From Candidatus Nanoarchaeia archaeon (lineage in GTDB: Archaea; Nanobdellota; Nanobdellia; Pacearchaeales; GW2011-AR1), in assembly GCA_035283785.1 (NCBI GenBank), contig DATETG010000005.1, forward strand, positions 2,902 to 66,901: a stretch of DNA of 64,000 nucleotides, in the 5' to 3' direction. Below the pieces are notes generated by a model, which was not told where the DNA came from, ran no database searches, and saw only the letters and a program-made list of their open reading frames with translations. Made by a program: the position numbers and the translations under genes. Numbering within the stretch: the first letter of the stretch is position 1; every line of letters begins with the position of its first letter. This document shows, piece by piece, positions 36,920 to 63,478 of this stretch.

Positions 36920-36990
36920 TGCGCCGGCCGGGGTTCGAACCCGGACCATCTGCTTGGAAGGCAGAGATACTACCATTATACTACCAGCGC
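36920..36990 (-). tRNA. tRNA-Gly (anticodon TCC)
   Basis: Cloverleaf folds by hand: acceptor GCGCUGG/CCGGCGC, anticodon stem UCUGC/GCAGA with loop CUUCCAA, T-arm CCGGG-UUCGAAC-CCCGG, discriminator A. No encoded CCA. Confidence 0.8.
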
Positions 36991-37082: not shown

Positions 37083-37166
37083 AGCAGGAGTAGCGAAGTG
37101 GTCAAACGCGCGGGACTCAAGATCCCGTCCTTTAGTAGGTTCAGAGGTTCGAATCCTCTCTCCTGC
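37083..37166 (+). tRNA. tRNA-Leu (anticodon CAA), class II with long variable arm
   Basis: Acceptor GCAGGAG/CUCCUGC, anticodon stem CGGGA/UCCCG with loop CUCAAGA, long variable arm, T-arm AGAGG-UUCGAAU-CCUCU. Confidence 0.8.
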
Positions 37167-37169
37167 ATT

Positions 37170-37261
37170 TGCCCGGGTAGCTCAGTCTGGATTAGAGCGA
37201 CGCACTCCTAAAATTAATTTGAAGTGATGCGTAGGTCGCAGGTTCAAATCCTGTCTCGGGC
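37170..37261 (+). tRNA. tRNA-Arg (anticodon CCT) with a ~16-nt intron next to the anticodon loop
   Basis: Acceptor GCCCGGG/CUCGGGC, anticodon stem ACGCA/UGCGU with loop CUCCUAA. A 16-nt insert (AATTAATTTGAAGTGA, 37211-37226) lies between the loop and the 3' stem strand. T-arm GCAGG-UUCAAAU-CCUGU. Confidence 0.7.
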
Positions 37262-37359
37262 GCTCATAATAAAGATAGGATTTCTAATCAGTTTAAAGAA
37301 ATTCGGATAGGAAAGTTTGCAAGAAAACTTCGTGTTCTTGCAAATCCTGTCTGGCGCTT

Positions 37360-37391: not shown

Positions 37392-37510
<119 letters not shown>

Positions 37511-52857: not shown

Positions 52858-53454
52858 ATGTTCTGGTGGTTTTCTGGGAAAAAAGAGGTCGAACGAGTCA
52901 GGGAAGATGTTAAGGAAAGTTTTGAGTTAGTAAAAAAAGACATGAATGATCTTGGAGAATGGATTAAGCATCTTAACTCCCACAAGGAAATGCATAAAAA
53001 AGATATCGAGAGTATAAGGGATATTTTATCGTCGATAAAGAAAGACGTTGATGAAATTAAAAATTCATTTGAAAGTCAAGAAAGTACTGAAACACCTGTG
53101 GTGTTTAAAACACCGAAACGGGTGTTTAAAAAACAAACAGCTGTTTATGCTGTTCAAACAGCTGTTCAAACAGCTGTTCAAACACCCAAATTAGAACATT
53201 TCTCAATAACAGAAAGAGCGATTCTCTGGATTTTGTTAAACACAGACATGAAGCTGAGTTATGAAGATATTGCATCAATACTCGGAAAAGAGAGATCAAC
53301 AATAAGAGGTCAAATTAATACCATAAAACAGAAAAGTGAGGGCTTAATAATGGAAACTTCGGAGAAAAATAATAAGAAAAGAGTGTTTATACCTGAAAAT
53401 ATGAAAGAAAAACTCCTCAAAAAGGCAAAAGTGAGAGTTAAAAAAAGGAAATAA
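52858..53454 (+). CDS. coiled-coil plus C-terminal winged-HTH DNA-binding protein, with a (TAVQ)n low-complexity linker
   Basis: N-terminal heptad-rich region. The linker AVYAVQTAVQTAVQT is encoded by a 12-nt tandem palindrome. The C-terminus ERAILWILLNTDMKLSYEDIASILGKERSTIRGQINTIKQK is HTH-like. Confidence 0.45.
   Translation: MFWWFSGKKEVERVREDVKESFELVKKDMNDLGEWIKHLNSHKEMHKKDIESIRDILSSIKKDVDEIKNSFESQESTETPVVFKTPKRVFKKQTAVYAVQTAVQTAVQTPKLEHFSITERAILWILLNTDMKLSYEDIASILGKERSTIRGQINTIKQKSEGLIMETSEKNNKKRVFIPENMKEKLLKKAKVRVKKRK
53136..53183. repeat. tandem 12-nt repeat CAAACAGCTGTT (about 3 copies), each containing the perfect palindrome AACAGCTGTT
   Basis: Direct reading at 53136-53183. It is in frame within CDS 52858..53454. 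Confidence 0.7.
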
Positions 53455-53527
53455 ACTTAAAACATTAAGAGAAATGAGGGAAAATTTAGTAGAATTAGCA
53501 GGAGAATTAAAAATAGAGGGATCTTAT

Positions 53528-53566
53528 GTGGGTAAAAATACTTTCTTTTATCTTATTTTTACCCAC
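53528..53566. terminator. 11-bp perfect inverted repeat (GTGGGTAAAAA ... TTTTTACCCAC) between convergent genes; a likely bidirectional terminator hairpin flanked by T/A runs
   Basis: Arms at 53528-53538 and 53556-53566 with a 17-nt spacer. It lies between the stops of 52858..53454(+) and 53630..54313(-). Confidence 0.45.
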
Positions 53567-53629
53567 TACAAGTTATAATCTTCTTCAGATGCACACAAAA
53601 CAAAAGTTATTCGGTGAACAAGAAAACTA

Positions 53630-54313
<684 letters not shown>

Positions 54314-54583
54314 TTAACTCGCCATACTCTTGTAGGTGTTATAAACCTTATCATTAAGCTTCCAGCGCATTCTTCGGGAGTACAGAATCCCTTTAGGGTT
54401 CCTATTTATCCCAACAACCAAATTTTTGGATTTTAATTCAGAAAGCAGGTTCTTAACAAACTCTTCATCTCTGGCTATCTCCACAGCTATATTTGAGGTG
54501 AATAAAGGTCTTGGAGAAGATGAGTAAAGAAGAGACAGAATCTGCTCAAAAATCTTCTCTTTCTTTTGCCAGGAAATTTTCAT
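54314..54583 (-). CDS. small winged-helix DNA-binding protein
   Basis: 89 aa. FEQILSLLYSS...IAVEIARDEEFVKNLLSELKSKNLVVG has an HTH plus wing-like pattern. Confidence 0.35.
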   Translation of the reverse strand: MKISWQKKEKIFEQILSLLYSSSPRPLFTSNIAVEIARDEEFVKNLLSELKSKNLVVGINRNPKGILYSRRMRWKLNDKVYNTYKSMAS

Positions 54584-54683
54584 GAAGAGAATTTTATTTC
54601 CAATTATATAAATTTTTAGTTTATTAAAAACTTAACAAGACTAAGAGGTTTAATAAAAGTCGGAAGAAGTTTCTCGGTCAAAT

Positions 54684-55094
54684 CTATTTTTTTATGTCCT
54701 TCACTGTTGGAAGGGGGATATGGAGGGGCAGACCCATTTCATCCTCTAACTGAAGAGCCTTTATGTTTGATTTCTTTAATATAACATTAAAGAGCATCAC
54801 CTTGTATTCAGATGGAAAAATCTCTTTGTCTTTCCAACTTTTCATAAAAGACTTAAATTCTTTTGAATCGACCATCAACAACAATATTCCTTTCAAATCA
54901 ACCTTTGCAATGTTTGGAGAATAACTTATCACGTACCTAAATCTTACCTCAATGAGGCTTTCTTTTGAAATAATGTCTGACTTCGCCTCTTCAACAGACT
55001 CTATATCTACATTACTCTCGATTTTCAAATCCTTGAAGTCATTTGATTCCTTCTCTACATTCACCTTGGTAAAATTAAATCCGATAATCTTCAT
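54684..55094 (-). CDS. hypothetical protein (136 aa)
   Basis: Clean ORF in the leftward operon. No motif recognised. Confidence 0.3.
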   Translation of the reverse strand: MKIIGFNFTKVNVEKESNDFKDLKIESNVDIESVEEAKSDIISKESLIEVRFRYVISYSPNIAKVDLKGILLLMVDSKEFKSFMKSWKDKEIFPSEYKVMLFNVILKKSNIKALQLEDEMGLPLHIPLPTVKDIKK

Positions 55095-55215
55095 TGGAAC
55101 CCTAAAGGAAAAATGTTTTTAAATATTTCTGTAAGAAAAACTCTGTTTTTGTGTTTGAAGAGTGTATAGAATGTGAAATTGTCTTTTTGGAAAGGTTGAG
55201 TTCTTTAAATCCGGC

Positions 55216-55473
55216 TTAGATAAGGTCTTCTTCTGAGACTATCAAGAAATCTCCTATTGCAATCACAGAATTGTAAGGAATAAGTATCTCGTTATTGCTT
55301 ACCCTCTCCAAATTAAGGTTTTTGGTGTAGGGTGTTGGATCCTTCACTACGACGTTGATTATCTCTCCGGAATTGGTTTCAAAGGTAAGATCCTTTACAA
55401 ATCCAAGTCGCTTACCTTCTTTTGTAACTATCATCTTTCCTGTTATAGAACTAAAAGGATTCCTTTCATTCAT
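55216..55473 (-). CDS. PRC-barrel-like domain protein
   Basis: 85 aa. ITGKMIVTKEGKRLGFVKDLTFETNSGEIINVVV fits the PRC-barrel pattern (G..V....G..lG.V.D...D...G.i). Confidence 0.45.
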   Translation of the reverse strand: MNERNPFSSITGKMIVTKEGKRLGFVKDLTFETNSGEIINVVVKDPTPYTKNLNLERVSNNEILIPYNSVIAIGDFLIVSEEDLI

Positions 55474-55590
55474 TTAAAATCATGATATTGGAATTTTATA
55501 AACTTTTCTGTGAAATTTTGTATATGTCCCGAAAAGAAAAAAATAAAGAAAACTAAAGAAAAATAGAAATAAACCTCTCAAAAAGTACAA

Positions 55591-56108
55591 GGGTCACCCC
55601 GCGGTTTCGTGTGGAAAGGTTTAAAAAGAAAATTCAAATTTTTTATATTTATTATTAATTTAAAAAAATTTATATTATATACTATATACTTATTACTTAT
55701 TATATTATATATTTATTAATATTGTATATTTATTAATACTACACAATTTTATGATACCTCCATTTATATTACACTGTTATCATATCATACAATTTTATTA
55801 GACAACTGTTGGTATTCTATAGCTATATTATCCTTGTCCAGTCTACAATTTTATTTTGTGTTATAAACTTATTACTTTGTTTGTTTGTGTTATATAATTC
55901 GTACACCTTGTTGTGTAGGATCACTGTAGGTCAATTTTATTGTGTAAGGTAGAGTTTTTGGATTCTCTATCTTCTCCCTTTGTACCTCCATGTCTCTCTC
56001 ACTTTTTTTTGCATTTCACATTCTGTTCTCACTTTACCCTTTGTTCTTCTGATTTTATTTTTTCCCGCGTCTAACTAATCTTTGAAAAATAACATTTCCA
56101 CAGGAAAC
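55591..56108. other. oriC: chromosomal replication origin (oriC): a full ORB-like element, an AT-rich unwinding region, and a mini-ORB, directly upstream of orc1/cdc6
   Basis: ORB-like element at 55591-55619 (reverse complement: CCTTTCCACACGAAACCGCGGGGTGACC, close to the archaeal ORB consensus TTCCA..GAAAC....GGGG). Extreme AT-rich repetitive DUE at about 55640-55900. Dyad mini-ORB TTTCCACAGGAAAC at 56095-56108. The orc1/cdc6 start lies at 56220. Confidence 0.6.
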
Positions 56109-56219
56109 ATTGGTGTCTTTCTTTTTTAGTAGTCATAATCCTTTATATACCATTCAAGTTTAATATCGAGTATAAATTTTTATTTTCCTAAGTTTCTATA
56201 GGAAATAAGGGTGTGACAC

Positions 56220-57458
56220 ATGGCAAATCAACTAGACAAAATATTTGAATCCTTTGACAAAAACTTTATTTTCAAAGACAAATCTGCACTGCAGATAAAT
56301 CACCAGCCAAAAGAGATAATCTACCGCGACGAGCAAATCAATCAAATAGCATCTATTCTTGCGCCGATTTTGAGGGGTGAAAGGCCGAGCAACCTTTTCC
56401 TTTATGGAAAAACGGGAACCGGAAAAACACTTTCAATAAAGCATGTCCGAGAGCATCTTCTAAAAAGAGTGAAAGAAGATGTTGGCTTCCAGCTGAGAAT
56501 AGAGTATCTTAATTGCAAATTAAAAAAAGTATCCGACACGGAGTACAGGATTTTAGCAGAGTTGATACGAAAAATGGGTGGTCAAGTTCCTACAACTGGC
56601 TTACCAACAGAATCTGTTTACAATAAATTTATAGAGATAGTTGATGAAAAAAAACAACTGGTAGTTTTGATACTTGATGAAATTGACTACACTGTTAAAA
56701 AAATATCGGATGACTTTTTGTATAATCTGACTAGATTAAACTCGGAATTGTCAAAAGCACAGATTTCCATTGTAGGAATAAGCAATGACCTGACTTTTTT
56801 AGAGAGTGTGGACGCAAGAGTAAGAAGCTCTCTTTCAGAAGAAGAAGTGATCTTCCCCCCTTATAATGCCGTTCAACTGAAAGAAATTCTAAAGAAAAGG
56901 GCAGACGAAGTTTTCAAACCAAATGTGGTTAATGAAGGGGTTGTTGAGAAGTGTGCAGCATACGCGGCACGCTCTCATGGTGATGCCCGTCGCGCCCTTG
57001 ATTTGTTGAGAGTTGCAGGAGAACTTTCAGAGAGAGAAGGTTCCAAGAAGATTCTGTTGGCACACATCGATGCTGCAAATGAAAAGATTGAGAGAGACAA
57101 GATTCTTGATGTAGTAAAATCCGAGCCAAAGCAATTCCAGTATGTTTTGTACTCAATAATCAAACTCTCGGAAAAAAGCAATCAAAAAAAACTTTCCCAA
57201 AAAAATGAAAGAGAATACTCACTGTTCACGGGAGAAATCTACAACTATTACAGAATGTTGTGTGAAAGAGACAAAATGGAAATTCTTACGCAGAGAAGAG
57301 TGAGTGATGTAATTCAGGAATTTGACATGTTAGGAATAATAAATGTAAGAGTCATATCAAAAGGGCGCGGAGGAAGGATGAGAGAAGTTAAACTGGCAGT
57401 TTCACCCCCAATAGTTGATAAAGTAAAACAAATAATAGAAGAGTCGCTTTTCAAATAG
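56220..57458 (+). CDS. cdc6: Orc1/Cdc6 replication initiator
   Basis: AAA+ Walker A LFLYGKTGTGKT, Walker B LILDEID, and a C-terminal winged-helix domain. 412 aa. Confidence 0.95.
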   Translation: MANQLDKIFESFDKNFIFKDKSALQINHQPKEIIYRDEQINQIASILAPILRGERPSNLFLYGKTGTGKTLSIKHVREHLLKRVKEDVGFQLRIEYLNCKLKKVSDTEYRILAELIRKMGGQVPTTGLPTESVYNKFIEIVDEKKQLVVLILDEIDYTVKKISDDFLYNLTRLNSELSKAQISIVGISNDLTFLESVDARVRSSLSEEEVIFPPYNAVQLKEILKKRADEVFKPNVVNEGVVEKCAAYAARSHGDARRALDLLRVAGELSEREGSKKILLAHIDAANEKIERDKILDVVKSEPKQFQYVLYSIIKLSEKSNQKKLSQKNEREYSLFTGEIYNYYRMLCERDKMEILTQRRVSDVIQEFDMLGIINVRVISKGRGGRMREVKLAVSPPIVDKVKQIIEESLFK

Positions 57459-59069
57459 ATGGATTCAAAAGAGATAATTAATTTTTGCATAGAAAAGGGG
57501 ATTTTGATAGATAAGGAGCTCTTGAATATTTTTGAAGATGCCAATGATATCAATTCCGTAAAGATTATTTTAGAAAAAATCCTGGAACAGACCTCACAAA
57601 AGATAATAACAAAAAAAATCTTCAGTCAGAATCGCGAGCATGTTTACAAAGTTTTTTCCTCTCTCCCAAATGAACAGAAGAACAATCTGGATAAATTGAG
57701 AATAAACCTAGGACTTAGCATAGAAATTTCTAGAGAGGGTCATCAACCAAAAATTCTTGATGAACAAGCAGTGTCTGAGAATGAACTCCGAAACGTTAAA
57801 GTCCTCTCTTCTAGCCTTCCCCCCACAAAAAAGCTAGAAGTCAAAGATTTTTCAAAACACTTTTCCCAGAGATATGTCGATCTGAGGAAAATTCTCCAGG
57901 AGCATCCTGGACTTTCAAATTTAATTTCTATAAACAAACTTTCAAAAGCGAATCAGGAATTCTCAATCATAGGAATCATTTACAACAAAACTACAACGAA
58001 AAATAATAACCTTATTTTTGAAGTTGAAGATTTGACAGGGAGGATGAAAGTGATAGTCACACAGAAAAATAAGGAAGTTTATCAAAATGCAGAGAATCTT
58101 CCGTTGGATTCGGTAGTTGCATTTAAAGGCTCCGGAAACAGCGAAATACTTTTTGTCGACGAGGTTATTCTCCCAGATGCCTTTTTACTCGAAAGAAAAA
58201 AATCACTGAATGACGAGTGGGCATTGTTTATAAGCGATGTTCACGTCGGAAGCCGTAACTTCATGGAAGAAAATTTTCTAAAATTTATTGATTATCTCAA
58301 CGGAAATATTCCGGGCACTCCTGAAGCAAAAAAGATAAAATATCTTTTTATTGTCGGAGATTTAGTGGCAGGTGTAGGAGTTTATCCTAATCAGGAAAAG
58401 GAGCTTGCAATAAAGGACATTGAAGGTCAATACACAAAAATGGCAGAACTTCTTTCAAAGATAAGGAGAGATATAAGAATAATCATAATTCCTGGCAATC
58501 ATGATTGTGTCAGATTAATGGAGCCGCAACCAATACTGGACGAAAAATATGCATGGGCACTCTATAATCTGGAGAACGTAACTCTCGTGCCGAATCCTTC
58601 CTTGGTGAATATCGGTTCAACAGAAACATTTGAGGGATTCAATGTTTTGATGTATCATGGTTTTTCCTACTTTTACTATGTTCATAACATTCCAAGCCTT
58701 ATAGAGGGAGAAGCATCAAAATCTCCCGACAAGGTCATGGCTTATTTGTTGAAGAACAGACATATTGCTCCAACACATGCCTCAAATCAGTATCTCCCTT
58801 CAGAACAAGATGGGTTGATGATCCGTATTGTTCCGGACATATTCGTTTCAGGACATACACACAAAAATTCAATTTCGTATTACAACAACATTCTGATCAT
58901 TTCCAACGCCTGCTGGGAAGAATTGATGCCCTATCAAGAGAAAATGGGATTTGAATCGGATTATTGCAAAGTCCCGATGTTTAATCTAAAGACTCGCGAG
59001 ACAAAAATCCTGGATTTTTTAGGGGAAAAGAAAAAAAGCAATCCTGAGGAAATTTTAAATGAAAATTAA
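57459..59069 (+). CDS. polB: DNA polymerase II (PolD) small subunit DP1
   Basis: C-terminal calcineurin-like phosphoesterase motifs (FISDVHVGS, GDLVAG, IPGNHD, GHTH), with N-terminal and OB domains. Confidence 0.9.
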   Translation: MDSKEIINFCIEKGILIDKELLNIFEDANDINSVKIILEKILEQTSQKIITKKIFSQNREHVYKVFSSLPNEQKNNLDKLRINLGLSIEISREGHQPKILDEQAVSENELRNVKVLSSSLPPTKKLEVKDFSKHFSQRYVDLRKILQEHPGLSNLISINKLSKANQEFSIIGIIYNKTTTKNNNLIFEVEDLTGRMKVIVTQKNKEVYQNAENLPLDSVVAFKGSGNSEILFVDEVILPDAFLLERKKSLNDEWALFISDVHVGSRNFMEENFLKFIDYLNGNIPGTPEAKKIKYLFIVGDLVAGVGVYPNQEKELAIKDIEGQYTKMAELLSKIRRDIRIIIIPGNHDCVRLMEPQPILDEKYAWALYNLENVTLVPNPSLVNIGSTETFEGFNVLMYHGFSYFYYVHNIPSLIEGEASKSPDKVMAYLLKNRHIAPTHASNQYLPSEQDGLMIRIVPDIFVSGHTHKNSISYYNNILIISNACWEELMPYQEKMGFESDYCKVPMFNLKTRETKILDFLGEKKKSNPEEILNEN

Positions 59070-60018
59070 TGATAGAGTTTATGGCGAAGAGGAAATAAAC
59101 GAGAAAGTTTTAATTGACTTGATAAATTCAGATGAAGTGCAAAGATTGAAGAAAATTTCTCAGCAAGGGCTTCCGGAAGAGTACTGCCGCGAACCTACAT
59201 TTTCACGATATGAACATTCTCTTGGTGTGATGATTTTGTTAAAAAGGCTAAATGCAAATCTGGACGAGCAAATTGCAGGACTGATACATGATGTTTCTCA
59301 CACCGCGTTTTCTCATGTTACGGAACTGTTATTTGGAGACCCAAGAAAAGATGATTATCAAGACAAAAAACATCAGATATTTGTAGAAAATTCTGAAATC
59401 CCGGAAATCCTCGAGAAGCACGGATTTAATTGCAAGAAAATTATCAATTTGAAAAATTTTTCCCTTCTTGAAAATGAGGTTCCCGACTTGTGTGCTGATA
59501 GGTTTGATTATGCGATAAGGGAAATTTTTATGGAGAATGAAAAGGATAAGATTGATTATATCATTAAGAGCCTGATAAATTGCGGAGGTAGAATGGCGTT
59601 TAGTTCATACGAGGCCGCAAAAATTTTTGCACTCAGTTTTTTGAAATGCCAGGTTTATCATTGGGGTAGTGACGAAGCGAAAATCAGATTTAAAATTCTT
59701 GCAGAGATATTGGACTACGGGCTAAAAAAAGGAATTATCTCCAACAGAGATTTATGGAAGGACGACGAGTTTGTTCTTTCTTTACTTAGAGGAGCCAACG
59801 ATGGAAAAATAAGTCGCGGATTTGAACTGCTCGAACGAGGTTCTGTTGTAGATTTGGAAGATTATAACAAGAATCTTATTAAAAAATTTAGGTATGTTGA
59901 TCCCCTGATTATTGTCGAGGGAGATTTATTCAGGCTGTCCGATGTTCTAGAAGATTATAAAAAATTACTGGAAATCGAAAAAGAAAAATCAATGAGCATA
60001 AATTCCAAAAAAGAATAA
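59059..60018 (+). CDS. HD-domain metal-dependent phosphohydrolase
   Basis: YEHSLGV...LIHDVSHTAFSH (H...HD...H motifs). It is inserted between polD DP1 and DP2. Confidence 0.7.
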   Translation: MKINDRVYGEEEINEKVLIDLINSDEVQRLKKISQQGLPEEYCREPTFSRYEHSLGVMILLKRLNANLDEQIAGLIHDVSHTAFSHVTELLFGDPRKDDYQDKKHQIFVENSEIPEILEKHGFNCKKIINLKNFSLLENEVPDLCADRFDYAIREIFMENEKDKIDYIIKSLINCGGRMAFSSYEAAKIFALSFLKCQVYHWGSDEAKIRFKILAEILDYGLKKGIISNRDLWKDDEFVLSLLRGANDGKISRGFELLERGSVVDLEDYNKNLIKKFRYVDPLIIVEGDLFRLSDVLEDYKKLLEIEKEKSMSINSKKE

Positions 60019-60019
60019 A

Positions 60020-63000
60020 ATGAACACCAATGAATATTTTCATGAAATTGAATCGAAGGTCAGAGAGGTCTATAAAATCGCCAATATCGCAAGGAGCAAA
60101 GGATATGATCCTGTAGACAAAGTAGAGATTCCTTTGGCAAGAAGCCTGGCAGAAAAAGTTGTCGGGCTTATCAGCACGATTTACCCTCAAATGGAAGACA
60201 AAGGGATTGCTGAAAGAATTTTGGAACTTGAAAAAAAATTTGGGAAACTTGATCCTGCCGTTTGCTTGCAAATCGCCGAAGAAGTTGCTAGAAGGAAATT
60301 TTGTGAATTTTCATCAGAGATTCAGGCGATTGAAGCCGGAGCGAGAATTGCATTTGCATATACTACACTGGGGGTGGTCTCATCTCCTATCGAAGGACTT
60401 ACTGAAATAAAAGCCGTCGAAACACCCTCGGGAAAATATTTGTCTGCTTATTATTCAGGACCCATCAGAAGCGCAGGAGGAACAGGTGCCGCATTCTCAC
60501 TCCTTATAATTGACTATTTAAGAGAATTGTTTGGTTATGAAAAATACATCCCTCGGGAAGAAGAAGTGAAAAGAACAGTGATAGAAGTAATGGACTACCA
60601 TGAAAGAATCACCAACTTGCAATATTTTCCGACAGAAGAGGAATTATATTTTCTTGCAAGGAACATTCCAATTCAGGTTAACGGAGAAGCATCAACAAAA
60701 GTGGAAGTTTCAAATTACAAAAATCTCGAAAGAGTGCATACTAATTACATTCGCGGAGGTCTTTGTTTAACAATTGCCGAAGGTTTGGCCCAAAAAGCCG
60801 CCAAGATAAGAAGGTATGCTTCTTCCCTAAAAGATAAGGGGTTCAAGATAAGCGATTGGAATTTTCTTGAGGAATATTGTGAGATTCATTCGCGGCGAGA
60901 CACTGGGAAGTCGGACAATTCTCCGACATATTTGAACGAACTTGTTGCAGGTCGTCCGATTTTTGGACATCCCTCAGCGTCGGGAGCTTTCAGATTTAGA
61001 TACGGGAGGAATAGAATTAGTGGTTTCAGCGCCGCTTCAATACATCCTGCTACAATGGCAATTACGGATTCTTTTATTGCGACAGGAACTCAACTGAAAT
61101 TAGAAAAACCCACAAAAGGATGTGCAATAACTGTATGTGATAATATCGACGGACCGATTGTCAAACTTTTCAGTGGGAGTGTAAGAAGATTAAAAGACAA
61201 GAATGAAGCAAAAAAAATATATCCTGACGTGGAAGAGATAATTTATCTTGGAGATATTCTCTTTCCATTCAGTGATCTTAGCAACAGGAATCATAACTTA
61301 ATCAAGCCGGGTTACGTCGAAGAATGGTGGAACCTAGAACTCCGGGAAAAAAATCCAGAATCAAAAGTAGACTTTTCCAATGTCTCATTTGACGAGGCAA
61401 TAAAAATCAGCAAGGATTTCGGAATTCCTCTGCATCCCGAATACATTTTTTACTGGACAGAAATTTCAAGAGAAAATCTTGACTCCTTTCTCGAATGGAT
61501 GAAACATTCAAAAATTGAAAAAAAAATAATCCTTCCCTTTACAGAAGAGCACAGAAAAAAGTTTTCAGGCGGTAAAAGAGCATTGGAACTTTTGGGGATC
61601 GAACACGATGTAGTTATTGAAAATGTTGTGATCTCCGAAGAAAATAGCAAGGCCATTTTGGCAAACCTTGGGATTAGCCCGTTCGTTTTGGAGGATAATA
61701 AACAAATCTTGAACGAGATGGAACTTTTAAAACAAAAACTAATTTCTCATGAAGGAAATATTTTAGATTTTATCAATAGTGTTTCTGCATTTGAAATAAA
61801 AAACAAAGCAGGAAGCTTTATAGGTTCACGTATGGGGCGTCCTGAAAAGGCAAAGCTCAGGAAGCTTATTGGCAGCCCAAACATCCTTTTTCCCGTAGGT
61901 AGCGAAGGTGGCAGATTGAGGAGTTTGAACGCCGCTGTTGAGGTGGGGACAGTGAATAATTCTTTCCCTCTCTTTTATTGTGAGAAGTGCAACAAAGAAA
62001 CCATTTACTCTTCGTGTGAAAACTGCGACGGAAAAACGCAAAAAATGTTTTATTGTCATGACTGTAGAAAAAAAACTCTGGAAAAATGCACAGAGCACGA
62101 GAGAGTTTACAATTATGCCAGAAAAGAGTTAAACATAAAAGAGTATTTTGAAAAAGCCTTGAGCAAAATAGGAATGAGAAGAGAGGAAGCACCTGCTTTG
62201 ATTAAGGGAGTAAGAGGCACTTCCTCGTCAGACCATAAACTTGAACATTTGAGCAAAGGAATTTTGCGTGCTGTTTTCGGACTGCAAGTTAATAAAGACG
62301 GTACTGTGAGAATCGACGCTACAGAACTCCCCTTGGTAGCTTTTAAGCCAAAAGAAATTTCGGTGAGCGTTGAAAAACTGCGAGAACTCGGATATGGGAC
62401 AGACATCTTTGGAGAGAATTTGACCTACAGCGAACAAATTCTAGAATTGAAGCCACATGATATTTTGCTTCCATGCTCCTTAGAATCCGGAGAAGAAAGA
62501 ACAGATGAAATTTTTATTAGAATCTGTAATTTTGTGGATTCACTTCTTGAAAATCTTTATGGAATAAAAGGGATTTACAATGTTTCAAAGAGAGAGGACT
62601 TGGTCGGGACGCTTGGAGTTTGCATGGCTCCTCACAATTGTGCAGGAGTAATCTGCCGCATCATAGGGTTTACAAATACCCAGGGATTGTTTGCCAGCCC
62701 GTATATGCACGCAGCGATCAGAAGAGATTGCGACGGGGACGAGGCTGCAATAATGCTTCTTGGAGATGTTGTTCTGAATTTTTCAAGAGAGTTTCTTCCA
62801 AAACATCGAGGAGGAACCCAAGATGCACCTTTGGTTTTGAATGCAAAAATAGACGCAGGAGAAGTTGATGACCAAATACTGGATTTTGAACTTTTGAAGG
62901 AATATCCCTTGGAATTGTACAGATTTGCAGAGCAGGGAAAGCATTCCTCTTCGATAAAACTTCACGACGTTAGAAAGGCCTTGTTGAAAGGAGAAGATCC

Positions 63001-63478
63001 ATTTGTAAATTTGGGGTTTACCCATGACACTTCTGATATCAATGAAGGGGTTACCTGTTCGTCCTACAAATCACTCGCGACAATGCAGGACAAACTTTAT
63101 CATCAAATGCAGCTTGTTGAAAAACTCCGCTGTGTTGATACTGCGGATACAGCAAAACTTGTTATCGACAAACATTTCATAAAGGACATGAGGGGTAATC
63201 TGAGAAGGTTCTCAACCCAAACTTTCAGGTGCGTTGAATGCAATGAGATAATGAGACGCCCACCTATCAAGGGCACATGCATAAAATGCAACGGGAAAAT
63301 AATCTTCACCGTAAATGAAGGCGGAATAAAGAAATACCTCGACGTTGCAATTGAACTTGCGGAAAAATACAAGCCATCGAAGTATATGCAACAAAATCTT
63401 GAAATGATTAAAAGATACATTGACAGCATTTTTGGAAAAGATCCGGAAAAACAAGAGGCATTGAAGAAGTGGTTTTAG
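60020..63478 (+). CDS. polC: DNA polymerase II (PolD) large subunit DP2, intein-free
   Basis: 1152 aa. The Cys clusters CEKCNKETIYSSCENCDG...CHDCRK and CVECNE...CIKCNG are typical of DP2. No intein-sized insertions. Confidence 0.95.
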   Translation: MNTNEYFHEIESKVREVYKIANIARSKGYDPVDKVEIPLARSLAEKVVGLISTIYPQMEDKGIAERILELEKKFGKLDPAVCLQIAEEVARRKFCEFSSEIQAIEAGARIAFAYTTLGVVSSPIEGLTEIKAVETPSGKYLSAYYSGPIRSAGGTGAAFSLLIIDYLRELFGYEKYIPREEEVKRTVIEVMDYHERITNLQYFPTEEELYFLARNIPIQVNGEASTKVEVSNYKNLERVHTNYIRGGLCLTIAEGLAQKAAKIRRYASSLKDKGFKISDWNFLEEYCEIHSRRDTGKSDNSPTYLNELVAGRPIFGHPSASGAFRFRYGRNRISGFSAASIHPATMAITDSFIATGTQLKLEKPTKGCAITVCDNIDGPIVKLFSGSVRRLKDKNEAKKIYPDVEEIIYLGDILFPFSDLSNRNHNLIKPGYVEEWWNLELREKNPESKVDFSNVSFDEAIKISKDFGIPLHPEYIFYWTEISRENLDSFLEWMKHSKIEKKIILPFTEEHRKKFSGGKRALELLGIEHDVVIENVVISEENSKAILANLGISPFVLEDNKQILNEMELLKQKLISHEGNILDFINSVSAFEIKNKAGSFIGSRMGRPEKAKLRKLIGSPNILFPVGSEGGRLRSLNAAVEVGTVNNSFPLFYCEKCNKETIYSSCENCDGKTQKMFYCHDCRKKTLEKCTEHERVYNYARKELNIKEYFEKALSKIGMRREEAPALIKGVRGTSSSDHKLEHLSKGILRAVFGLQVNKDGTVRIDATELPLVAFKPKEISVSVEKLRELGYGTDIFGENLTYSEQILELKPHDILLPCSLESGEERTDEIFIRICNFVDSLLENLYGIKGIYNVSKREDLVGTLGVCMAPHNCAGVICRIIGFTNTQGLFASPYMHAAIRRDCDGDEAAIMLLGDVVLNFSREFLPKHRGGTQDAPLVLNAKIDAGEVDDQILDFELLKEYPLELYRFAEQGKHSSSIKLHDVRKALLKGEDPFVNLGFTHDTSDINEGVTCSSYKSLATMQDKLYHQMQLVEKLRCVDTADTAKLVIDKHFIKDMRGNLRRFSTQTFRCVECNEIMRRPPIKGTCIKCNGKIIFTVNEGGIKKYLDVAIELAEKYKPSKYMQQNLEMIKRYIDSIFGKDPEKQEALKKWF

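Follow-up and report, generated by a model that had tools for sequence, protein, structure and literature searches.

The stretch of DNA analysed here (hereafter the window) comprises 64,000 nucleotides of contig DATETG010000005.1 from assembly GCA_035283785.1 of a Candidatus Nanoarchaeia archaeon, with a GC content of ~35% (mean A+T 65%, sd 6%). Towards its right-hand end it carries an orc1/cdc6 initiator gene (56220-57458, plus strand, 412 aa), directly preceded by a 746 bp intergenic region (55474-56219) whose flanking genes diverge. A first-pass annotation, made by eye, had proposed this region as a chromosomal replication origin (oriC), in which origin recognition boxes (ORBs) surround an AT-rich duplex unwinding element (DUE) upstream of orc1/cdc6, and our sequence analysis supports that architecture. 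As judged from its sequence, the initiator is of the Orc1-1 type. It contains the Pfam domains Cdc6_C (82.9 bits against a cut-off of 25.1), Cdc6_lid and AAA, and scores 403 bits against TIGR02928 (cut-off 181), whilst its score of 472.8 against the equivalog NF001625 lies under the cut-off of 501, indicating membership at the subfamily level and not at the equivalog level. The best PDB matches are Sulfolobus solfataricus Orc1-1 (2qby_A, 2.9e-96) and Aeropyrum pernix ORC1 (2v1u_A, 8.8e-85), 2QBY and 2V1U being the two archaeal initiators crystallised on origin DNA; our protein conserves the segment RRVSD..E.DM.GI...V...GR.G of their winged helix. Within Nanobdellota, ORC1/Cdc6 is reported to belong to the core genes carried in a single copy (10.64898/2026.05.13.725050).

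Relatives were collected by searching prokaryotic genomes, one per species, with Orc1 as the query, giving 50 loci with an Orc1 identity of 63-75%, mostly metagenome-assembled genomes (MAGs) labelled Pacearchaeota, Woesearchaeota, Nanoarchaeota or Nanoarchaeia, each of ~13 kb and ~480 kb in total. These labels place the window in a Pacearchaeota/Woesearchaeota-like member of the DPANN archaea (Nanobdellota). The first pass over them used a regular expression for the ORB core, and a 24 nt ORB matrix was built from the relatives only, with the window excluded. This matrix detected exactly four sites of at least 23.5 bits in the window, all within 54031-56216 and thus no more than 2.2 kb from where orc1 starts, whereas nothing else in the window scored above 11.1 bits; the scan thus recovered both boxes noted by eye and added two, which we refer to as P2 and G. 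The distal box (D, 55594-55617, minus strand, TTTCCACACGAAACCGCGGGGTGA, 25.2 bits) has no mismatch to the skeleton TCCANNNGAAAYNNNGGKGT, and is oriented with its dyad end toward the putative DUE and its G-string (GGGGTG) away from it. A reverse-strand ORB with a G-string had been read here correctly, but its start, given as 55591, has to move 4 nt to the right: on the minus strand, 55595-55619 reads CCTTTCCACACGAAACCGCGGGGTG. The first proximal box (P1, 56095-56118, plus strand, TTTCCACAGGAAACATTGGTGTCT, 27.6 bits) is inverted relative to D, with which it makes up an inverted repeat of 18 nt (89% complementary). Its dyad, TTTCCACAGGAAAC at 56095-56108, stands exactly as the first-pass annotation gave it. 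The name mini-ORB does not suit it, however, because the dyad runs on as ATT-GGTGT-CTTTCTTT and this 3' extension is conserved in 51 sites from relatives (consensus TTTCCAyaaGAAAT..aGGTGTttTTCTTT); P1 is a full-length ORB variant with a degenerate G-string. The second proximal box (P2, 56193-56216, plus strand, TTTCTATAGGAAATAAGGGTGTGA, 23.5 bits) repeats P1 in direct orientation 98 bp further downstream, its last base falling 3 nt before the orc1 ATG; it has one mismatch to the TCCANNNGAAAYNNNGGKGT skeleton and escaped the eye because its core is TCTA in place of TCCA. The fourth site (G, 54031-54054, minus strand, TTTCCACAGGAAATGATGGGGTTC, 27.5 bits) lies 2.1 kb upstream, inside a coding gene.

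Short dyads are common in AT-rich DNA, and a 13-mer with one mismatch is not significant alone (4 matches against 1.6 expected, with 8 of 100 shuffles reaching 4), which is what could be said for regarding the matches as chance occurrences in AT-rich intergenic DNA. The full-length motif behaves otherwise: with at most one mismatch, TCCANNNGAAAYNNNGGKGT finds the same four sites against 0.11 expected, a number that 0 of 100 shuffles reached, the sites are clustered within 2.2 kb, and their positions, orientations and spacing are conserved in ~45 species-level relatives. Shuffled windows contained a mean of 0.64 matrix matches of at least 10 bits and gave a top score of 22.5, and TTCCACNNGAAAC has two perfect matches in 64 kb, namely the distal and proximal boxes in inverted orientation. 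The chance explanation is already refuted by the matrix scan, the relatives and the shuffle test, and we attach practically no weight to it. Against the 20 nt "Common" ORB motif of Ori-Finder 2, TCCA[CG]T[TG]GAAA[TC][GA]AAGGGGT (PMC4164010), G has 2 mismatches and, by hand count, P1 has 4, D 5 and P2 5, nearly all at positions which vary between lineages; the euryarchaeal ORB consensus is GTTCCAGTGGAAAC-AAA----GGGGG (PMC1868953).

The 478-bp gap between D and P1 begins with an AT-rich block adjoining D (55618-55735, TTTAAAAAG..TTTTTTAT..ATTTAAAAAAATTTATATTATATA.TATATA), which is the putative DUE. At 96% A+T, positions 55636-55735 are the most AT-rich 100-bp stretch of the window (next best 84%), exceeding its mean by more than 5 sd, and also the segment of lowest nearest-neighbour stability in the window; the 200-bp and 300-bp A+T maxima (86.5% and 82%) lie at the origin block too. 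Tandem Repeats Finder identified AT tandem repeats of period 7 to 17 at 55671-55738. The description of this DNA as ~250 bp of near-pure A/T with short repeats was right in kind but not in extent: the core measures ~115 bp (55618-55735, 92-96% A+T), positions 55736-55900 are only 66-84% A+T, and the rest of the gap is a lineage-specific spacer (55736-56094, 359 bp). This spacer holds four direct copies of (A/T)CAATTTTAT, at 55743, 55789, 55845 and 55932, and a strongly C/T-rich plus-strand tract at ~55960-56070, and blastn matched it in none of the 50 relatives. The four ACAATTTTAT repeats were ruled out as a conserved origin element, being absent from the relatives and lineage-specific; a mobile-element origin of the spacer was also considered, and further copies were found neither in the window nor in the relatives. 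Searches of the whole window against Rfam at the gathering threshold returned only 5S rRNA and tRNAs, none of them at the origin, and a permissive E-value scan of 53400-56300 gave zero matches, so the conserved blocks correspond to no known RNA family.

The same ORB-type boxes occur at the same syntenic positions in the 50 related loci. Where a locus extends far enough upstream, it contains P1 and P2 almost without exception; the two are spaced 97-99 bp apart in 43 of 46 genomes, with P1 at about -125 to -235 from orc1, and a minus-strand homologue of D was found in 32 relatives at -223 to -632 from orc1, the D-P1 distance ranging from 93 to 482 bp among genomes (median 227 bp). Outside these positions, the ~480 kb of loci yielded one matrix match of at least 16 bits. 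The first-pass annotation had named the joint lack of a skew switch and of conserved boxes in relatives as grounds for giving up the origin; as the boxes are conserved, that combination does not arise. The AT block is likewise conserved in sequence, directly beside D, in an alignment of D plus 95 bp from 33 genomes including the window, in which the consensus C.CACCCC..aTTTC...T.G.AA..T continues as TTAAAAAG..ttTt..TTTTTt..ATTTAtAAAaaTtTATATTATATA.TATATA. The D-P1 interval in the 33 genomes is 86% A+T (median), and each has a 60-bp core of 88-100% A+T (median 97%); in the shortest version, L001, the AT block makes up the whole 93-bp interval. We also observed that the contigs of L002, L009, L012, L016, L017, L034, L036 and L041 end 128-400 bp upstream of orc1, and that L035 and L049 contain runs of N within the D-P1 interval. 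Many public MAG contigs thus stop, or have assembly gaps, in the AT-rich block between D and P1, and assemblies of this lineage seem to break systematically at the origin, owing to its extreme A+T and tandem repeats. Archaeal orc1-PolD contigs were also encountered under the bin names Patescibacteria group, Bacillota, Gammaproteobacteria and Omnitrophota (L020, L028, L044 and L046), these bacterial names probably reflecting binning contamination in public MAGs.

The segment between P1 and P2 (56119-56192, plus strand, CTTTCTTTTTTAGTAGTCATAATCCTTTATATA...) would contain the orc1 promoter, with a TATA-like box at 56142-56149. More than 80% of the sequences in a 43-genome alignment share TTCTTT.T.AGT.GT.ATAA...TTTATATAA here, which we infer from the archaeal promoter consensus to be the transcription factor B recognition element (BRE) and TATA box of this promoter; on that assignment P1 would immediately precede the promoter and P2 would fall within the short leader.

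An intergenic site adjacent to orc1, at least two ORBs, inverted ORBs around an AT-rich DUE, and conservation in relatives are properties of an origin that can be tested in sequence, and all four are found at this locus. From these sequence elements, their statistical excess, their conservation in position and sequence, and the type of initiator, we read the locus as a chromosomal replication origin of the oriC1 type, fused to the promoter of its own initiator gene, and place the probability of this at roughly 0.82. The Orc1-1-type initiator (56220-57458) would bind the inverted D and P1 boxes, whose dyad ends face inward and G-strings outward, and would distort the DNA, such that the AT block beside D (55618-55735) opens and MCM helicase is loaded, the site thereby serving as an origin in vivo. 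Orc1 seated on P1 and P2 around the BRE/TATA-like element probably also represses or times orc1-PolD transcription, a form of autoregulation, whilst G would give Orc1 a further, distal place to bind, comparable to the ORBs clustered within dp1 of Pyrococcus.

Several observations weigh against an origin here. No skew switch could be demonstrated, as the cumulative GC-skew (1-kb) has its minimum at ~43 kb, not at 56 kb, its curve tracks gene orientation, and the window has only 8 kb to the right of the site. Third-codon-position GC/AT skews hint that the minus strand is G/T-enriched left of the site, which is compatible with leftward forks, but the five right-side genes are intermediate in third-position skew and not clearly leading-strand, and third-position skews pooled over the 50 relatives are gene-specific and inconsistent; we take the skews to be uninformative and not a negative result. 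In some archaea (Thermococcus kodakarensis, PMC5663688), moreover, a canonical oriC and Cdc6 are dispensable, so a canonical architecture is no proof of use, and P1 and P2, taken by themselves, could be operators of the promoter. The boxes might accordingly be nothing other than transcriptional operators, bound by Orc1 or another winged-helix protein, with replication starting elsewhere or by another route, e.g. recombination-dependent; this would suit the fixed spacing at which P1 and P2 bracket the TATA-like element, the position of P2 just before the ATG, the skew switch that was detected neither in the window nor in the pooled relatives, and the origin-independent replication documented in T. 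kodakarensis (PMC5663688). Promoter control needs, however, no inverted D abutting a conserved ~115-bp AT block of least stability, an inverted ORB with an AT block being the layout by which mapped archaeal origins are defined (PMC4010727, PMC1904270), and autoregulation coexists with origin function in known oriC1 loci, which makes the operator reading more an addition than an alternative. That the boxes are operators and nothing else we consider improbable, and we retain the oriC1-type origin as our interpretation.

Compared with characterised systems, the overall layout is, at the sequence level, most like the oriC-cdc6-dp1-dp2 arrangement of Thermococcales, and the ORBs come nearest to the Common, Methanomicrobia and Sulfolobaceae motifs. 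With the oriC of Pyrococcus abyssi and P. furiosus the locus has in common a lone cdc6/orc1 gene immediately downstream, the PolD genes after it, AT-rich DNA framed by long ORBs in inverted orientation, and further ORB-type boxes within a neighbouring coding gene (here the candidate site G); those of Pyrococcus are clustered in dp1, where Cdc6 binds them both in vivo and in vitro (PMC1904270). In the present locus, by contrast, there are four long boxes, each with a fixed role, where Pyrococcus has many 13-bp mini-ORBs; P1 and P2 stand in tandem at a constant 98 bp on either side of the putative orc1 promoter; an HD gene separates DP1 from DP2 (here and in 5 of 39 relatives); and the in-gene ORB sits in a MarR-like gene across the origin, not in dp1. 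Its host is, apparently, a low-GC (~35%) metagenome-derived DPANN archaeon and not a hyperthermophile. A Pyrococcus-style dp1 cluster was considered and rejected, given that dp1 of the window has no matrix match of at least 10 bits; dp1 of the relatives has none of at least 16 bits other than one of 17 bits in L013, and the weak TCCANNNGAAAY matches in dp1 of some relatives are without a G-string.

With the oriC1 of S. solfataricus and A. pernix, whose Orc1-1 initiators are the closest PDB relatives, the locus shares the TCCA-N3-GAA(A/C)-N3-GGGGT core and G-string (Ori-Finder 2 Sulfolobaceae and Common motifs) and ORBs inverted around a DUE beside the initiator gene. Sulfolobus has three origins and three initiators, whereas one initiator gene is seen here, and the G-string of P1 and P2, both candidate sites known from sequence, reads GGTGT/GTGTG, a degenerate form of GGGGT. 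The haloarchaeal oriC1 of Haloferax volcanii and Haloarcula hispanica resembles it in the adjacent orc1, the intergenic position between divergent genes, the ORBs with G-strings around a primary DUE, and a nearby DP1 (PMC1868953). The present locus lacks, however, the extended halophile-specific G-string, its intergenic region is 746 bp against 1,360 bp, and its context is that of a single origin as opposed to multi-origin, multi-orc genomes.

Site G lies within a gene on the minus strand (53630-54313), syntenic in 32 relatives, which encodes a 227-aa protein with a coiled coil, a predicted disordered linker and a MarR-like winged helix-turn-helix (wHTH). An AlphaFold (AF2) model built with 37 homologues shows a helix at residues 3-47, a linker at 48-112 without secondary structure (mean pLDDT per 10-residue block about 46-56), and the wHTH at 113-226. 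G is in frame and encodes the residues (I)STGNDGV, continuing as ISTGNDGVPTD, and directly 3' of it stands a (CAGA)n microsatellite (53990-54030, minus strand, period 4, 9.8 copies, 100% matches in Tandem Repeats Finder), which encodes TDRQTDRQTDRQT (RQTDRQTDRQT). The family, which comprises uncharacterised DPANN coiled-coil/MarR-like proteins, has 1,971 detectable homologues, and amongst the 120 best listed, at least 112 carry the peptide signature (I/F)S(T/S)GNxGV(P/S)TD(R/K)QTD, RQTDRQT being kept in the same number.

The codons underlying this signature are fixed in 30 orthologues, which use TCC for Ser (30/30), GGA (27/27) and GGG (30/30) for Gly, GTT for Val (27/27), CCA for Pro (24/24), ACA for Thr (30/30) and GAC for Asp (27/27), and third-position identity is 0.94 across the G motif against 0.61 in 74 other amino-acid-conserved columns of the same gene. 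Some of the fixed codons are rare in these genomes (TCC 9% of Ser, GGG 19% of Gly, GAC 29% of Asp), and the variation that is seen, in the wobble base of Thr and throughout the "x" codon, falls on the N positions of the ORB. The simplest reading of these sequences would be DNA-level selection for an Orc1 site within a permissive protein linker, for which the dp1 cluster of Pyrococcus provides a precedent. The peptide signature may be no protein motif at all but a translated footprint, in a disordered linker 1.7-2.8 kb from oriC, of a selected Orc1-binding ORB and a CAGA microsatellite, a proposal we advance tentatively and rate a little below an even chance. The uniform CAGA array may itself reflect slippage dynamics rather than selection.

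The position of this box within a wHTH gene could also be taken to mean that one of the upstream winged-helix proteins (89, 227 or 198 aa), and not Orc1, binds the repeats, with any ORB resemblance coincidental, the more so as the three wHTH genes are strictly syntenic with the locus. Site G, however, matches the published pan-archaeal Common motif at 20 of 20 positions in 11 relatives, and is the sole such match per locus; the TCCA-N3-GAAAY-N3-GGGGT core with its G-string has the structure of an Orc1-1 site, and the DNA-binding regions of Orc1 are conserved with the crystallised ORB binders. We therefore regard binding by one of these wHTH proteins in place of Orc1 as very unlikely. A role for the 227-aa protein as a replication factor (WhiP/Cdt1-like) was considered and set aside, since a Foldseek fold search of the model returned generic MarR-family winged-helix matches only, and NCBIfam and Pfam gave nothing above threshold. 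A PIP-box reading of the conserved peptide was ruled out by inspection, as the aromatic pair is absent.

Further observations concern the same gene and its surroundings. Gain or loss of CAGA units in numbers not divisible by three would throw the reading frame off, so that the 227-aa gene could be phase-variable. A paralogue at 52858-53454 (plus strand), transcribed convergently, likewise comprises a coiled coil, a low-complexity linker and a wHTH, and its linker carries a perfect 12-nt repeat in three copies, GCTGTTCAAACA at 53149-53184, encoding AVQT repeats in place of the ORB signature. Near the position of the paralogue, L020, L028, L032 and L042 have a plus-strand ORB-like box, TTTTCCATTAGAAACCGAGGGGCTTCGACAC, in a surrounding open frame of only 30-50 codons. 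The in-gene ORB has an inverted partner at ~80 bp in L035 (3561-3638), L039 (4099-4176) and L050 (1093-1170), the G-strings pointing inward across the CAGA array to form an ORB-(CAGA)n-ORB palindrome inside the coding sequence.

The wider gene order, ccwHTH198 (plus; cc, coiled coil), ccwHTH227, wHTH89, p136 and the PRC-barrel gene (all minus), then the origin, then orc1, DP1 and DP2 (plus), is kept in 29-38 relatives. The PRC-barrel protein gene (55216-55473, minus strand, PF05239 9.6e-10) forms the left boundary and is transcribed away from the origin; it was found at the same position in 38 relatives with 59-81% identity, making it the best conserved of the five left-flank genes, and always stands directly beside the D ORB. 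On the right, DP1 (57459-59069) directly follows orc1, an HD-domain gene (59059-60018) overlaps DP1 by 11 nt and has a weak dGTPase-like NCBIfam match, and DP2 lies at 60020-63478, all on the plus strand and identified by Pfam. The orc1/cdc6-DP1-(HD)-DP2 operon had been predicted by the first-pass annotation, and its order holds, with orc1 starting 111 nt after the P1 dyad; orc1-DP1-DP2 is conserved in relatives, but the HD gene lies between the PolD genes in only 5 of the 39 relatives having both, and because of this its distribution marks it as a sporadic insertion into the PolD operon. Elsewhere in the window, a 5S rRNA gene (37396-37510) stands beside three tRNA genes (36920-36990, minus; 37084-37167 and 37171-37262, plus) with no 16S or 23S gene nearby, and appears to be unlinked from the other rRNA genes.

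In the literature searched, "origin recognition box" together with DPANN appeared in no paper, and a 2026 preprint that rotated 208 complete Nanobdellota genomes to begin at ORC1 relied purely on gene homology and analysed neither ORBs nor skew (10.64898/2026.05.13.725050). The lineage ORB matrix and the D-DUE-P1-TATA-P2 layout provide a sequence-level definition of the origin for Pacearchaeota/Woesearchaeota-like genomes, which could be used for rotating genomes to a common start, for growth-rate estimates from coverage (peak-to-trough ratio), and for explaining assembly breaks at the origin. As interpreted here, the canonical Orc1-1/ORB system would extend to ultra-small symbiotic archaea, an origin arrangement which is expected rather than surprising, and the codon-constrained in-gene ORB is the only potentially new lesson. 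If that site is what its codons suggest, the origin of this lineage reaches into a coding gene, and the initiator bound at G may couple replication initiation to the expression of the neighbouring regulator, or aid looping of the origin.

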